A stretch of DNA of 60,342 nt, from assembly GCA_046160365.1 (NCBI GenBank), contig JBJXGL010000207.1, positions 1 through 60,342 on the forward strand, written 5' to 3'. The translations under genes and the position numbers were made by a program. This DNA is from Aestuariivirga sp. (GTDB taxonomy: Bacteria; Pseudomonadota; Alphaproteobacteria; Rhizobiales; Aestuariivirgaceae). The notes beneath the pieces were generated by a model. That model had not been told where the DNA came from. It did no database searches and saw nothing but the letters and a program-made list of their open reading frames with translations. Below are positions 1 through 7,586 of the stretch, in pieces (positions within the stretch are counted from its first letter, which is position 1; each line of letters starts with the position of its first letter).

Positions 1-45
1 CTGAGAAAACAGACTGGATAGGGCGTTGGAAAACAACGAGTGCAT
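1..45 (-). CDS. 5' end of a gene running off the left edge (MHSLFSNALSSLFSQ...), product unknown
   Basis: ATG at 45-43 preceded on the minus strand by GGAAGGA (RBS-like); frame open to the window edge. Confidence 0.5.
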   Translation of the reverse strand, partial: MHSLFSNALSSLFSQ

Positions 46-134
46 GGCGTGATTCCTTCCTTGCAAGGGGTGGAATCTGTTTCATGAATCGTTTCAGCGC
101 CTTATCCAACTGCGTCGAGTACGCTGAGCGCGCG

Positions 135-163
135 TTGACAAAGTTCTTATTGTGTTCCATCTC
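135..163 (+). promoter_or_regulatory. Sigma70-type promoter with an embedded LexA (SOS) box
   Basis: Consensus -35 TTGACA at 135-140; GTTC-TTATTGT-GTTC at 143-157 matches the alphaproteobacterial LexA motif GTTC-N7-GTTC and fills the spacer; the -10 (CATCTC, 158-163) is degenerate. Confidence 0.75.
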
Positions 164-169
164 TCCCGC

Positions 170-530
170 CGCTCCCCTCCACTCGAGGGTCCTGCTCATG
201 ACGGTGAGCCTGGATGGTGGTGAGGGCAGGTCTGCGGTGGAAGGCGAACGTTGCCTCGAGCCCCGGACCCCTGGACTGCCCCCGGCGGGTTACTACGGAC
301 CCGTTCCCTATAGGTGGGCTCAAACCGGGATGGTGGGCTCACGCCGTAATCCCATAACCGGGGAGCTGACTGAGGCAGCCAGGGTGAACATCCTGCCGGC
401 GTGAGCGCTGCAAAGCGCACGTTCTCGCGACTTTAAACAAGAGTCGCACCCCGCGTTGAGCAGCGCTCACGCACCCCTCGTCTCCGGGGGCAAGAATGGG
501 AGGCCGAGGTCCGGACATACCGGTCCCACA
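170..530 (+). ncRNA. Candidate large structured non-coding RNA (~360 nt), family not recognised
   Basis: Nested complementary segments 182-188/254-260, 263-268/509-514, 269-280/374-384, 281-285/358-362, 287-293/346-352, 399-411/460-472 (13 bp perfect), 427-433/441-447; lies directly downstream of the promoter; overlapping ORFs are unconvincing; ends approximate. Confidence 0.65.
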
Positions 531-540
531 ATTCGATGAG

Positions 541-1659
541 TCATGCCCGCTGGAGAGCGCCGGTTTGAAACAGATAAACTCGCAATCCCCCATGCAACAC
601 CGGCGCTGATTGTTTGAAGGGAAGACCCGTCGCACGGGCAAGCGCCGCATCGCTGGTGATGATGCCGACGCGCCATCCGGCGAAGCGTTCGCGTAGTGTC
701 TGTCCCAATGCGGCATAGAGCGCGAATAGCGGCTTCTTCTCGCCGATGCGTGAACCATAAGGCGGATTGCAAATCACCAGGCCCGGAGGGCCATCGGGCG
801 GAGCGATGTCGCTCACGGATTTGCGTTCGAACACGGTGAAGCCCGCCACATCCGCGCGCTTCGCATTGGCCTCGGCAGCAGCGATAGAGCCTTGATCGCG
901 GTCGCTGCCGTGGAAAATGAAAGCGGGCGTGACGCGCGCGGGCGCAGCCTTCATGGCTGCCCACGCGTTTGCATCGAAGGTCGCCAGCTTCTCGAATGCG
1001 AATGAGCGATTGCGTCCGGGAGCCAGGCCCGCCGCGATCTCCGCCGCCTCGATCACGAAGGTGCCGGAACCGCACATCGGGTCGAGCACCGGCTCACTTC
1101 CGGTATATCCGCATTGGCGAAGAAACAGCGCCGCCATGGTCTCGCGCATCGGCGCCTTGGCCATGGCCTGCTTCGCTCCGCGCTTATGCAGCAATTCGCC
1201 TGAGGTATCGACGCTGAGCGTCAAAAGATCGCTCTCGACCCTCGCCTTGATGGCGATATCGGCATCAGCGCTGACGGGCGCGCCCAACTCCTCGCGGATC
1301 GCTGTTTCAATGCGCTGGGCGACAGCGCCGGAATGATAGAGCTTCGAGCGTTTGCACGAAGCCTCGACGCGCACCGGAACGCCTCGGCGCAGCACCTCGC
1401 CCCACGGAAAACTTCGTGCCCGCTTGTCAAGCTGCGCCAGGTGCGTAACCGGAAACTCGCCGATCCGCGCCAGGACCTGGCTCGCACCTCGCAGTTCCAG
1501 ATTGGCCCGCCAGACATCGCGCCATGTGCCCATGAACGCGACGCCTCCCGCCATCCGCCTTGCGTCCGTAAAACCCTTCGCCGCTGCTTCGTCGCGCAAA
1601 GCCTCCTCGAGGCCGGGCACCGCGACAAGGAAGACCTCAAATCGTTCGCCATCGGTCAT
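541..1659 (-). CDS. THUMP-domain class I SAM-dependent RNA methyltransferase (RlmL/YpsC-like, UPF0020)
   Basis: N-terminal PGLE motif, DTSGELLHKRG, APMRETMAA, DPMCGSGT and NPPYG motifs. Confidence 0.9.
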   Translation of the reverse strand: MTDGERFEVFLVAVPGLEEALRDEAAAKGFTDARRMAGGVAFMGTWRDVWRANLELRGASQVLARIGEFPVTHLAQLDKRARSFPWGEVLRRGVPVRVEASCKRSKLYHSGAVAQRIETAIREELGAPVSADADIAIKARVESDLLTLSVDTSGELLHKRGAKQAMAKAPMRETMAALFLRQCGYTGSEPVLDPMCGSGTFVIEAAEIAAGLAPGRNRSFAFEKLATFDANAWAAMKAAPARVTPAFIFHGSDRDQGSIAAAEANAKRADVAGFTVFERKSVSDIAPPDGPPGLVICNPPYGSRIGEKKPLFALYAALGQTLRERFAGWRVGIITSDAALARATGLPFKQSAPVLHGGLRVYLFQTGALQRA

Positions 1660-1753
1660 GCCTCTCCATAGAGCGAAATCAATTGGCCTGCGACGAGATT
1701 TCCCGGCCTCCCTTTTGGCGCAATCGGCCGTTCACATGCTAAGAGATAGTCCC

Positions 1754-3187
1754 ATGGATTCAACGCTCCCCACCGAGCCCAAACCTTTCGTTCCACCGGC
1801 GCCCATTCCCCGCAAGCGTGCGAGCATTCCGGGCTTTTTCGAAGTGGTGCGCACCATCATGCGCAATCCGCTGGAGCTCTGGGGCGAGCCTTCTTATGAA
1901 GACAGATGGATCGGCACCAAGTTCCTGAACGAGCGCTCGCTTATCGTCAACGATCCGGGCCTCATCCGTCATGTGCTGGTCGAGAATGCGTCGAACTACA
2001 AGATGGGCGTCATCCGGCAGCTGATCCTCAGGCCCATCCTGCGCGATGGCCTGCTGACAGCCGAAGGTGAAGTCTGGAAGCGTTCGCGCAAAGCCATGGC
2101 GCCGGTGTTCACGCCGCGCCAGGTGTTTGGCTTCGCCGAAACCATGTTGGCGTGCACCGAAGCTTATGCCACGCACTATGGCGAAGCGGCCCGCACTGGC
2201 GCCACGCGCGACATCGCGAGAGACATGACCGAGCTCACCTTCGACATCCTGTCGCAAACGCTGTTCTCGGGCGAGATCGTCACGGCGTCCGGCGACTTCG
2301 CCAGCGATGTCGAAAATCTGCTCCACACCATGGGGCGCGTCGATCCGTTCGATCTTATCAAGGCTCCGCCTTGGGTGCCGCGTCTCACGCGCATCGAGGG
2401 CGCCAAAGTGATGAAACTGTTTCGTGGCATTGTCGACGATACGATCGCAAAGCGAAAAGGGAAGATGACGAAGGGCGCCGATGTCCCCGACGATTTCCTG
2501 ACGTTGCTCTTGCGGCAGGAGCGCGCCGATGGCCTCAGCCGTGAGGAGATCAACGACAATATCATCACCTTTATCGGCGCTGGCCATGAGACGACGGCGC
2601 GCGCGTTGGGTTGGGCAATCTATTGTCTTGCCAACGCGCCCGCGGATTTGCACGAACTCGAGAACGAGATCGACGCATTCTTCGCTGGCGAAATCCCCGC
2701 GCCGCATCTTTGGCTCGACCGGCTGCCGAAAACCCGCGCGGCTTTCGAGGAAGCCATGCGGCTCTATCCGCCGGCCCCGTCCATCAACCGCGCGGCCATT
2801 GAGGACGACCGTTACGAAGACCTGGAGATCAAGGCGGGTACAACCATTCTGATGATGCCCTGGACGCTGCACCGGCACCGCAAGCTGTGGGACCGGCCCA
2901 CGGCGTTCATTCCCTCGCGTTTCTGGCCGGAGAATCGCGAGAACATCGACCGCTTCCAGTATCTGCCCTTCGGTGTCGGCCCGCGCGTTTGCATCGGCGC
3001 ATCCTTCGCGCTTCAGGAAGCGGTAATCGCACTCGCCATATTGCTGCATCGCTTCCGCTTCCATTGCACGCCCGCGTGCAAGCCGTGGCCAGTGCAGAAA
3101 CTCACGACACAGCCTGACGGTGGATTGCCGATGACGGTGACCCTGCGAAATGTCAGGGAATCGCCTTCCGCCGCTTCGCCTTCATGA
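1754..3187 (+). CDS. Cytochrome P450
   Basis: AGHETT I-helix, EAMR (ExxR), heme motif FGVGPRVCIG; start trimmed to MDSTLP because the longer ORF overlaps the divergent gene. Confidence 0.95.
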   Translation: MDSTLPTEPKPFVPPAPIPRKRASIPGFFEVVRTIMRNPLELWGEPSYEDRWIGTKFLNERSLIVNDPGLIRHVLVENASNYKMGVIRQLILRPILRDGLLTAEGEVWKRSRKAMAPVFTPRQVFGFAETMLACTEAYATHYGEAARTGATRDIARDMTELTFDILSQTLFSGEIVTASGDFASDVENLLHTMGRVDPFDLIKAPPWVPRLTRIEGAKVMKLFRGIVDDTIAKRKGKMTKGADVPDDFLTLLLRQERADGLSREEINDNIITFIGAGHETTARALGWAIYCLANAPADLHELENEIDAFFAGEIPAPHLWLDRLPKTRAAFEEAMRLYPPAPSINRAAIEDDRYEDLEIKAGTTILMMPWTLHRHRKLWDRPTAFIPSRFWPENRENIDRFQYLPFGVGPRVCIGASFALQEAVIALAILLHRFRFHCTPACKPWPVQKLTTQPDGGLPMTVTLRNVRESPSAASPS

Positions 3188-3731
3188 CCAATCGCCAGGC
3201 GAAAACAATGAAGATGATCGCCGCGACAAGTGCGAGGTAAGGCAGCATGATCGCCAGCACGGAGAGCAGGATCGCTCCAATGATCTCTCCCGTCGCCAGC
3301 GCGCTGTTGCCGATACCGCCGGTCAGCATTGTCGATGCACCACGCAGCAGCGTCGTCGCTCCTTGCGTGGCGGCGGCAGCGCCTCCGCCCGCGATGATGG
3401 CGAGTGACCATTTCAGCATCGGCGGCAGATCGCCCATTACCGCGTAGGAGACCGCAATGCCCGCGCCGACTGCGACTGGCCCGGCGATGCCATCGAGCAG
3501 ATTGTCGAGCACAGGCACATAATACGCGGCGATCTCGGCGATCGCCGCCACTGCCAGCATGATCAGCGCAGGCGTTGTGGCAATCCAGTCGAGGCTGTCC
3601 GCCAGCGGCAAATACCCGCCCCGCGCCGCAAGGCCCGCAATCAGCATCGGAATAAACACCCGAAACCCCGTGGCGGCAGCCAGCGCCAGGCCGAGCGCGA
3701 TAGGAACGGCGGCTTCAGCGAGATTTTCCAT
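3153..3731 (-). CDS. DUF4126-like membrane protein
   Basis: GLALAAATGFRVFIP and EIAAYYVPVLDNLLD motifs; hydrophobic; start trimmed to MENLAE. Confidence 0.8.
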   Translation of the reverse strand: MENLAEAAVPIALGLALAAATGFRVFIPMLIAGLAARGGYLPLADSLDWIATTPALIMLAVAAIAEIAAYYVPVLDNLLDGIAGPVAVGAGIAVSYAVMGDLPPMLKWSLAIIAGGGAAAATQGATTLLRGASTMLTGGIGNSALATGEIIGAILLSVLAIMLPYLALVAAIIFIVFAWRLVMKAKRRKAIP

Positions 3732-3868
3732 GGCCCACCTGATTGTCTCCGGTGCTTCATATAGCAAATGATTTCCACGTGCGAAGCTCCCACCAGTTCC
3801 GTTGCCGCAAATTGGCCCTGAAATGCGGGTGTAAGCCCCCCTGAAAGAAACCGGGTAAGGCACTCGCC

Positions 3869-5719
3869 ATGGCAACGCTGGCCGAAAAGATCATGCTCTC
3901 GCTCGACGTCTATGAGGACGCGAGCCGGCTGCCGCCGGGCTGGACGCGGGTGGCGCAACGCGACGATGGCGGCAGCGGGTTCTTCGCCGCCGCTTACCGC
4001 AAGGGAGCCGAGGTTGTCGTAACCTTCCGCGGCTGGAACGACGCCGAGCCTACCGACGCCGTCGACATCTTGCGCGCGTACGAGAACGGCCCCTTCGAGC
4101 AGATCGGCGATGCCCAACGTTTCTTCGACGCCGTGAAAGCCGCAAACCCCGGCGCAACGTTCTCGTTTACCGGACACTCGCTGGGTGGCGGGCTCGCGGC
4201 CGCCATGGCGGTGCGCAATAGTCTGCAGGCAACGTCCTTTGCCGCGATCGAAATGGTGGACGCCGTGCTCGAAAGCATGAATGGCCACAAGGAGAAATTC
4301 CTCGGCATCACGCTGTGGGAAATCGCGGCGGCAACGTTCAACACCGCGATCACGCGCGCGGAGCTTTCGAACTATACGGGTGTGCAGAACTACACCGTGT
4401 TCGGAGACATCGCCCACTACAACCACCGCGCGATCCCCGCCACCGGTTTCGTTGGTGCCGACACCGTACTGCTGCCCGGCCTTGCGGCGCAGATCTACGA
4501 AGACGACAGCCAGTTCGGCCGCTGGGCGGGAAACACCGGCGATATCTGGTCGTCGCTGGTTCCGCTCAACACGGCGGGCACGCCATTCTCCGTCGACTTC
4601 GCGGCGCAGCTTCATTCGCTCGGCTTCACCGCGCTGCCGCTGCTCTTTGTTTCTGACATGGCAAGTCTCACGGCCGCGCTTCCACGCCTCGTGCTTCAAC
4701 TCACCAACGATTATCTGGCGCGCGACAGCGATGGTGTCATCCCCTGGCGCATGACTTACGATGCGCTCGACGCCATGGTGTTCGATCACTTGAAAACGCC
4801 TTCGGGCCAGGCGACCGTACTCTCCGCGATGATGGGCGATCTGCACGACATTGCCAATGGCGGCCCCAATGGAAGTGCAGTTGCCGATCGGGAGATCAAC
4901 ACCGGCATCCTGCAGCTTGCGATCGAACACGCGGCGCGCGAGGCGCTCGACAACAATACCGCTCCAAACACCGGAGGCCTCATCACCGACAACGGCGTCT
5001 ACATCTCCGCCGATCTCGGGCGCGGCTACGATCACGCACCCGAAGGCACGCGCGTGCTCGTGGCCTATGCCGGTTTTCTCGCGGGCGATGCCGCGGGGCA
5101 GGGCGGCACAATCATCCTCAACGGCACGGACCGCGTGCTGATCGAAGCCAACAACGGAGTGTCCGCGGCCTTCAACGGGCTTTGGACATCGAATGAGTTG
5201 ATCTTCGGCGGGCGCGGCAACGATGTCATCAACGCCTTCGCCGGCAACGACGCGATCTTAGGCCTCGGCGGCCGCGACCGCCTGTGGGGGCATGCCGGCA
5301 ACGATCTGCTTTCGGGCGGAGCCGATGCCGACGTCCTCGCTGGCGGTCCGGGCGACGATATTCAGATCGGCGGCGCGGCGGGTGACCGGCTTCATGGTGA
5401 AGCGGGGCGCGATATGTTCGTGTTCGACACGCTTGCGAATGGCGCCACCGGAGACGTCATCGTGGATTTCGCGCCGGCCGACGACACGCTCGCCTTTGAC
5501 AATGCAAGCTATACCGCGCTCGGCTCCGTTGGGCCGATCGCTGCAAGCGCGCTGGCCTTCGGCGGCATCGCGACCACCGTTGCGCATCGGTTCGTCTACA
5601 ACACGGTGAACGGCGTGCTGCTCTATGACGCCGATGGATCGGGCGCCGTTGCCGCCTTGCGGATCGCAACACTCACATCCGTCCCCGTGCTGACGGCGGC
5701 GGATTTTCTGGTGATCTGA
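3869..5719 (+). CDS. Secreted lipase-like (alpha/beta hydrolase) protein with RTX calcium-binding repeats
   Basis: VVVTFRG and GHSLGG nucleophile elbow in the N-terminus; about eight GGxGxD-type nonapeptides; C-terminus ADFLVI typical of type I secretion substrates. Confidence 0.8.
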   Translation: MATLAEKIMLSLDVYEDASRLPPGWTRVAQRDDGGSGFFAAAYRKGAEVVVTFRGWNDAEPTDAVDILRAYENGPFEQIGDAQRFFDAVKAANPGATFSFTGHSLGGGLAAAMAVRNSLQATSFAAIEMVDAVLESMNGHKEKFLGITLWEIAAATFNTAITRAELSNYTGVQNYTVFGDIAHYNHRAIPATGFVGADTVLLPGLAAQIYEDDSQFGRWAGNTGDIWSSLVPLNTAGTPFSVDFAAQLHSLGFTALPLLFVSDMASLTAALPRLVLQLTNDYLARDSDGVIPWRMTYDALDAMVFDHLKTPSGQATVLSAMMGDLHDIANGGPNGSAVADREINTGILQLAIEHAAREALDNNTAPNTGGLITDNGVYISADLGRGYDHAPEGTRVLVAYAGFLAGDAAGQGGTIILNGTDRVLIEANNGVSAAFNGLWTSNELIFGGRGNDVINAFAGNDAILGLGGRDRLWGHAGNDLLSGGADADVLAGGPGDDIQIGGAAGDRLHGEAGRDMFVFDTLANGATGDVIVDFAPADDTLAFDNASYTALGSVGPIAASALAFGGIATTVAHRFVYNTVNGVLLYDADGSGAVAALRIATLTSVPVLTAADFLVI

Positions 5720-7509: not shown

Positions 7510-7586
<77 letters not shown>

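Follow-up and report, generated by a model that had tools for sequence, protein, structure and literature searches.

A dispersed, protein-free repeat made up of its own promoter and an ornate RNA of about 380 nt lies at the left end of a contig of Aestuariivirga sp., and the explanation that we favour, and to which an even chance is given, is that of a selfish RNA repeat coupled to DNA damage through the promoter that it carries. According to this explanation, LexA would repress the promoter in the host genome until DNA is damaged; the transcript, from about position 168-171, would fold into a pseudoknotted three-domain shape and dimerise via a hexamer; and the element would spread at the DNA level, presumably by recombination and without target duplications, persisting as a selfish repeat that ties its own expression to damage. 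The window, i.e. the whole stretch of 60 342 nucleotides that was analysed, contains the following features of relevance.

1-126, minus strand: terminal part of a repeated insertion sequence that recurs unchanged at the ends of contigs C323, C9 and C184
127-135, plus strand: 9-bp target-site duplication of the insertion sequence, ending in the first T of the -35 element
135-140, plus strand: -35 element TTGACA, read from the sequence
143-157, plus strand: LexA operator GTTC-N7-GTTC in the promoter spacer, assigned from the sequence, the lexA box and the genus promoters (box type, PMC6237742)
158-163, plus strand: probable -10 element CATCTC, from its 17-bp spacing to the -35 element
168-549, plus strand: ornate non-coding RNA element of about 380 nt, from fold, sibling matches and covariation
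194-209, plus strand: hairpin P2, holding the hexamer TCATGA (196-201) and the loop triplet ACG (201-203)
225-397, plus strand: central multibranch domain, closed by a long-range helix (225-230 with 392-397)
231-267, plus strand: hairpin P4 in the central domain, whose loop triplet CGT (249-251) pairs with 201-203
284-305, plus strand: hairpin P6 in the central domain, with the conserved loop ACTACG (292-297)
399-472, plus strand: 3′ domain, a long hairpin interrupted by two internal loops, from covariation of its outer helix
473-549, plus strand: 3′ tail, overlapping the stop codon of the convergent gene, without intrinsic terminator or boxA
541-1659, minus strand: convergent neighbour with RlmL-like methyltransferase domains, outside the element

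The RNA element in the window

The element is a stand-alone non-coding unit, the 5′ end of which is predicted, while the 3′ end is set at the point where sibling copies cease to match. The fold of 168-535 has a z of -2.75, and no match to the covariance models of Rfam 15 was obtained in window 1-5000 (best E 0.23) or, at the gathering score, in any of 13 homologous loci, the collection including ROOL, GOLLD, OLE, HEARO and raiA. No conserved ORF or peptide was found across the RNA copies: the ORF opened by the conserved ATG varies from 6 to 102 codons in length and is not in a constant frame, and a small hydrophobic ORF preceded by a ribosome-binding site is present in only 2 of 84 copies. A type I toxin mRNA of the tisB or dinQ type was rejected as a candidate in the absence of a conserved small hydrophobic ORF. 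A dedicated adjacent ORF, as in HEARO/OMEGA, retron and other RNA-plus-enzyme loci, was not found among the neighbours, and a search for intrinsic terminators in 1-800 returned none.

With regard to expression, positions 184-334 are covered in one metatranscriptome by a contig of 151 nt, which has a depth of 2 and differs from the window at four places; the same run otherwise covers just a tRNA fragment in 20 kb of the window. This observation weighs little, since the run was found by using the window sequence and the reads may originate from DNA; low-share sequencing runs and the uncovered parts of the window were left out of the evidence. Elsewhere in the window, a tRNA-Met gene (7510-7586) is the sole tRNA/tmRNA match, and a 616-aa ORF (3869-5719) contains a GxSxG motif and glycine-rich repeats near its C-terminus, which we take to be a lipase-like motif and repeats of the RTX type, respectively.

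The promoter and its LexA operator

The first-pass annotation had reported a -35 hexamer followed by a perfect LexA box in a promoter pointing into a structured region, with a convergent gene as the next one. These statements hold: TTGACA is at 135-140; the operator consists of GTTC (143-146), TTATTGT (147-153) and GTTC (154-157); the region into which the promoter points is non-coding and backed by covariation; and the RlmL-like gene is on the minus strand. The putative -10 element lacks the final T, so that a strict promoter scan gives no promoter here; from the spacing of the elements, the transcription start is predicted at about 168-171. The bare GTTC-N7-GTTC motif is within chance in the window, where it is seen three times against 2.0 expected (32 of 100 shuffles reach three), and it occurs 144 times in the 4.79-Mb genome; it is its position and conservation that give it weight. 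The host genome encodes LexA, with the same box type upstream of lexA and of two further genes, which we take from their N-termini to be ssb and radA. The motif is the Caulobacter SOS box, as described in the available part of PMC6237742. Taken together, the operator is real and most likely controls the window copy of the RNA.

The alternative that had been raised, namely that the box serves a divergent gene starting at 45, fails. Positions 1-126 are the repeated end of an insertion sequence, bordered by a 9-bp target duplication, which places the ORF at 45 within the insertion sequence. The latter has a 13-bp imperfect terminal repeat (114-126); its opposite end is seen on seven contigs, four of which are paired by 9-bp duplications, and one such duplication pairs contig C182 with the window. 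The insertion landed 8 bp before the -35 element and leaves the operator outside. Since the presumed gene is the start of the insertion sequence, the box belongs to the RNA; sibling copies are boxed without the insertion sequence, and conservation of the box is thus not confined to the divergent gene, as the same annotation had considered. The insertion sequence lies at or beside the -35 element of LexA-boxed promoters in three of its seven visible sites (window 1-135; G000 C328:1-160 and C184/C180).

The window promoter is identical in 26 of 28 bases to that of another boxed gene, on contig C328, and the sequence upstream of it is unlike that of the sibling copies, which suggests that this promoter was acquired by promoter capture.

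Fold, pseudoknot and self-complementary hexamer

The transcript is predicted to adopt a pseudoknotted three-domain fold. The 5′ helices and the pseudoknot are paired in 90.7% of cells across 60 genus sequences, with a covariation score of 0.48 as compared with 0.195 for shuffled and at most 0.16 for slid alignments. Across 19 full-length sequences, 83.6% of cells are paired in the long-range helix and the 3′ helices taken together, and 98% in the helix 225-230/392-397; the outer helix of the 3′ domain reaches 92%, with double changes at five of its ten pairs. Pairing between the loop triplets of P2 and P4 is possible in 15 of 18 genome-level combinations (5.9 after shuffling), through ACG/CGT in the window and ACA/TGT, GCG/CGC, CCG/CGG, ACC/GGT or GTG/CGC elsewhere; one triplet pair is broken in 5 of the 60 genus sequences. 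All these structure counts run over related sequences and are not probabilities, and five mis-registered rows and three with no parsed loop were read by eye before the triplet and hexamer counts.

The hexamer of P2 is perfectly self-complementary in 38 of 45 copies by automatic register and in four more by eye. Its central pair is self-complementary in 24 of 24 genome-level variants (AT, GC, TA or CG; 6.1 after shuffling), and its four-base core in 23 of 24. In two pairs of copies the centre is swapped, from TA to AT (L371 versus L372) and from AT to GC (L368 versus L369), the opposite hairpin strand being unchanged in both and the hairpins otherwise identical. Adjacent bases are unable to pair with each other inside one chain. 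Covarying adjacent nucleotides in a palindrome are taken as evidence for symmetric intermolecular bridges in the accessible sections of PMC12286853, as for OLE B3 and GOLLD B8. On this pattern of covariation, the RNA likely dimerises through the hexamer. Because the hexamer overlaps both the P2 stem and the kissing triplet, the dimer and the hairpin fold would be alternatives; and, because the genus searches required TCATGA, only model-found copies test it. A two-strand fold of P2 gave a duplex in another register, and no support for the dimer was taken from it.

Copies and distribution

At least six copies are present in the host genome, with 5′ ends on contigs C207, C352, C25 and C349 and 3′ ends on C207, C352, C145, C115 and C272; between a divergent copy on C55 and the boxed promoter belonging to it lies an insertion, presumably IS1595, flanked by an 8-bp duplication. 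The RNA core motif is found in 72 of 151 genus genomes, at 0-11 copies each, and is absent from the other 79; among the near-complete ones, 43 of 88 have it and 45 have none. Of 150 genomes of the order, 13 are matched by a covariance model built on the first 138 nt. On inspection, matches in families f5, f10, f15, f18, f21, f24 and f40 keep the architecture, and genome G099, with 17-18 matches, has the highest copy number in the distant families; the matches in G193, without the architecture, and in G202 look spurious and were rejected. In a draw from the class, 5 of 149 genomes match (G380 and G418 credible on inspection, three marginal), and the model search of a phylum draw gave 0 of 149 other genomes. 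By these matches, the RNA family is spread over at least eight Hyphomicrobiales families.

Blastn against plasmids and phages gave no match. Among IMG/VR viral contigs the core pattern was found 0 times, and two looser patterns at 128 loci or more, none of those listed passing the model; no association of RNA copies with tRNA genes or prophages was seen. In copies of family f40 and genome G380 (L351, L359, L364, L342, L377, L380), the central and 3′ domains are separated by exchangeable internal modules, among them a hairpin unit of about 35 nt repeated in tandem.

An exchangeable operator

A perfect box is present in each of the five host copies whose 5′ end is known; three spacers occur among them, and one of the five is a divergent subtype with the box at another register. 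Across the genus, TTGAC precedes the RNA core by 48-52 nt in 26 of 26 first loci and 78 of 87 non-redundant genome loci. After removal of three chance matches from 162 non-redundant promoter windows, a perfect box is found in 30 of the remaining 159 (0.13% of shuffles), with four others at one mismatch; 129 (about 81%) are without a perfect box. Both copies in the cultured type strain, Aestuariivirga litoralis, are unboxed. The offset of the box from TTGAC is -15, +8 to +10, +14, +16/17 or +19/20, with many spacer sequences. On a tree of 129 RNA bodies, built from 135 columns and with rough support, the box label changes 18 times, at least ten of these changes being forced by strong branches. 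No box was found at the promoters of the inspected distant-family copies, and in G042, G099 and G446 the copies are unboxed, LexA being still encoded.

The operator is, therefore, exchangeable between lineages. The repeated occurrence of perfect boxes implies selection for LexA control, which on these promoters operates in some lineages without defining the family, and it is likely that control by damage is an addition to a selfish repeat and not its defining role. The proposal of the first-pass annotation that the RNA is a member of the SOS regulon stands in so far as an operator sits in the promoter pointing into the RNA and travels with it; the stronger idea of an SOS system by nature does not, given the unboxed majority, the unboxed distant copies, the LexA-positive genomes with unboxed copies and the patchy, multi-copy character of the repeat. 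Likewise, the expectation that the box be kept upstream of RNA homologues whatever the flanking genes is borne out in part, as the box follows the RNA and not the flanks, but does so in just 30 of 159 promoters.

Neighbours, ends and mode of spread

The RNA is absent beside all 29 orthologues of the convergent RlmL-like gene (drawn from 47 genomes with a match; three flanks are shorter than 750 nt). Downstream genes are on the same strand in 35 cases and on the opposite strand in 31, by crude ORF calls, and the largest cluster of recurring neighbours comprises 6 of about 234 loci. No terminal repeats were detected in 28 copies (4.5 nt for own ends versus 4.7 nt for swapped controls), nor was a target duplication or a transposase of the element found in these. 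Empty orthologous sites and dispersed copies both occur, the sites not being base-precise. The left ends of copies within a genome are sharp and coincide about 12 bp ahead of TTGAC, indicating that the promoter is copied together with the RNA, and spread would therefore take place at the DNA level. Two copies at orthologous sites in G000 and G020, together with several neighbours that recur across species, indicate that copies have also been passed on vertically for long periods.

REP-like repeats adjoin about 25% of RNA ends, versus 6% of gene ends; as the mechanism of spread they were rejected, since one orthologous pair shows later insertion of the repeats. One type of transposase, presumably IS1595-like, recurs just upstream of or inside RNA promoters (L066, L153, L189, L205, L227, L235). 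The unboxed distant copy L367 (G064:C44) is followed directly, in the same orientation, by a recA-like gene.

A partly GTA-like promoter end

When a matrix of RNA left ends was applied to the 7946 TTGAC sites of the host genome, the top ranks were taken by the promoters of a gene for a 234-aa protein, the RNA copy on C55 and a family to which the promoter of a terminase-portal-protease-capsid cluster belongs, the gene names of the latter being read from ORFs. GTA-type terminase loci from 35 genomes provided 27 parsed promoters. Their upstream block and -35 element are, in the genus and order, nearly identical to those of the RNA. Block scores above 15 bits are reached by 65 of 150 RNA promoters, by 16 of 32 sites in the 234-aa family and by 1 of 1293 controls; the window promoter, at -11.6 bits, is without the block. 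The GTA promoter spacer holds a palindrome like the GafZ element in the available text of PMC11150451, and the same source, on Caulobacter GafY/GafZ, offers a further likeness in the small hairpin at the transcript start. Unlike in the GTA promoter and leader, a LexA box or an ATTCCTA motif takes the place of the palindrome in the RNA promoter spacer, no GTA gene follows, and the GTA leaders themselves are without the RNA. From the similarity of the blocks, the left end of the RNA appears to share ancestry with the GTA-cluster promoter, with the spacer palindrome replaced.

Of 80 genus tails, 19 contain an rRNA-type boxA (0.1% of shuffles), as do 6 of the 37 distant ones; the window copy is without one, and many tails finish in a ribosome-binding site and start codon. 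In one subfamily (L031, L037, L049, L059, L072, L087, L103, L105) the start codon is ATG, GTG or TTG, and the same tails contain a five-codon frame ending inside a boxA-like motif. None of the 35 GTA terminase loci contains the RNA, and packaging genes are absent from 125 same-strand downstream ORFs at 150 loci. A single copy, L238, is back-to-back with a terminase operon, which is within chance. A GTA-type terminase is present in all five distant RNA-positive genomes examined, and the RNA in 10 of 15 terminase-negative versus 18 of 46 terminase-positive genomes (p 0.08).

The 234-aa protein is helical and is encoded by about 30 dispersed copies (G000 C346:4517-5218, i.e. L152, C98, C14 and others), and its family occurs in 65 of 151 genus genomes, often at 10-25 copies. 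Its genes have a GTA-type promoter end and a perfect LexA box in 18 of 23 promoters; no assignment was obtained from Pfam, PHROG, Atlas or PDB folds. An obligate partnership with the RNA was rejected, with 33 genomes having both against 31 expected (p 0.52); a profile of the protein gave no match in five RNA-rich genomes, and the gene never adjoins an RNA copy. In G000, a GTA-type terminase-portal-protease-capsid cluster is on C186 (L396), and orphan copies of its promoter are on C143, C348, C158, C54 and C285, one orphan preceding a small two-gene module that presumably is a BrnT/BrnA pair. ORF-less elements at C152:924 and C256:4349 of the same genome, both on the minus strand, have an rRNA-type boxA no more than about 70 nt downstream of a LexA-boxed promoter, and a further boxA is on C310.

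Competing explanations

Conservation of structure over eight families would fit a host-useful RNA equally well as a selfish repeat, and kin are non-independent in every count given above. A host-serving SOS RNA, structural or protein-binding, which would aid survival of DNA damage and be amplified for dosage, accounts for the boxes of the five host copies, divergent subtype included, and for the selection that recurrent perfect boxes imply; a precedent is the LexA-affected 6C RNA with its damage phenotype, as reported in the available part of PMC5014011. It is nonetheless an unlikely explanation, with the 129 genus promoters without a perfect box, the 79 genus genomes without any copy (45 of them near-complete) and the unboxed copies of LexA-positive genomes all standing against it. 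Less doubtful, but still well behind the selfish repeat, is the idea that the element descends from the leader of a late operon, of phage type or related to GTA, and survives as a relic, a portable promoter-plus-leader acting in cis, whose fold would serve attenuation or antitermination and whose boxed copies would give their neighbours damage-induced read-through, antisense in the window. The resemblance of the promoter block and first hairpin to GTA-cluster promoters, the boxA of genus and distant tails and the ribosome-binding site and start codon at the end of many tails all speak for such an origin, as do the long leaders and antitermination that GTA clusters use according to the available part of PMC11150451. 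It is, however, hard to reconcile with 0 packaging genes among the 125 downstream ORFs, with 0 of 35 terminase loci containing the RNA, with its absence among the viral contig matches listed, and with neighbours in both orientations and a window copy without boxA; moreover, a cis leader has no need of a dimer signature.

A further explanation is a GTA parasite or satellite, in which the oligomeric RNA, or a GTA-like DNA end, would engage the GTA packaging machinery and spread upon damage or GTA induction, much as phi29 pRNA serves the phi29 packaging motor. A GTA-type left end common to three dispersed families, sharp left ends without duplications, the intermolecular pairing signature of the hexamer, the terminase of all five distant RNA-positive genomes examined and the position of L238 are in its favour; yet the RNA is, if anything, commoner in genomes in which no terminase was found, the lone adjacent case is within chance and the RNA promoters lack the GTA spacer palindrome, so that this explanation is regarded as a long shot. 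Its specific form of an RNA-only satellite, with a GTA-derived promoter end, an oligomerising RNA, LexA-wired lineages and packaging-borne spread within and between Hyphomicrobiales genomes, is held to be similarly improbable. Least credible by far is that the RNA is a structured messenger for a type I toxin peptide under LexA control. Size, folding, LexA control and multiple copies are features that the RNA has in common with dinQ of E. coli (PMC3567139, in the part available) and with tisB, a LexA-controlled type I toxin gene of the same species; the inconstant length and frame of the ORF from the conserved ATG, and the rarity of a small hydrophobic ORF with a ribosome-binding site, contradict it.

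Relation to known systems and significance

The element combines traits of several known groups. Correia elements are promoter-bearing MITE-like repeats and provide a comparison for a repeat that carries its own promoter. With the MRSC class, as presented in the available part of PMC11109978, it has in common the many copies per genome, in mixed orientation, non-coding and patchily distributed; it differs from MRSC and MITE-like repeats in having no terminal inverted repeats, target duplications or transposase, and a deeply conserved tertiary-style fold in place of a single stem. Like OLE, ROOL and GOLLD in the accessible text of PMC12286853, the RNA is several hundred nucleotides long, with a pseudoknot or kissing loops and no ORF, and, like OLE B3 and GOLLD B8, it has adjacent nucleotides covarying within a palindrome. 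Unlike them, as far as the same text goes, it is smaller, has no Rfam match, reaches about 18 chromosomal copies at unrelated sites, has no tRNA or prophage association that was seen and has an exchangeable LexA operator, its oligomer being predicted from sequence. The 6C RNA of Corynebacterium (PMC5014011) and DinR of Klebsiella (PMC10907235), in the parts of these sources available, likewise have their level tied to LexA; both are short single-locus regulators, whereas the RNA described here is long, multi-copy and boxed in part of its family. Of the mitomycin-induced sRNAs of Caulobacter in the available part of PMC6237742, none has an SOS box. Full-text literature searches gave no description of the family; supplementary motif tables (e.g. 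those of PMC11109978 and PMC5737381) may hold an unnamed fragment.

What is new is an undescribed family of large structured RNAs that, by its matches, extends across at least eight Hyphomicrobiales families, and for which the sequence signatures of a pseudoknot and of dimerisation between RNAs are unusually clean, making it a ready target for structure work. It appears to be an RNA gene that has repeatedly joined and left the SOS regulon, and it links three dispersed repeat families of one genome to the GTA promoter; if that link were functional, the element would be the first GTA parasite consisting of RNA alone.
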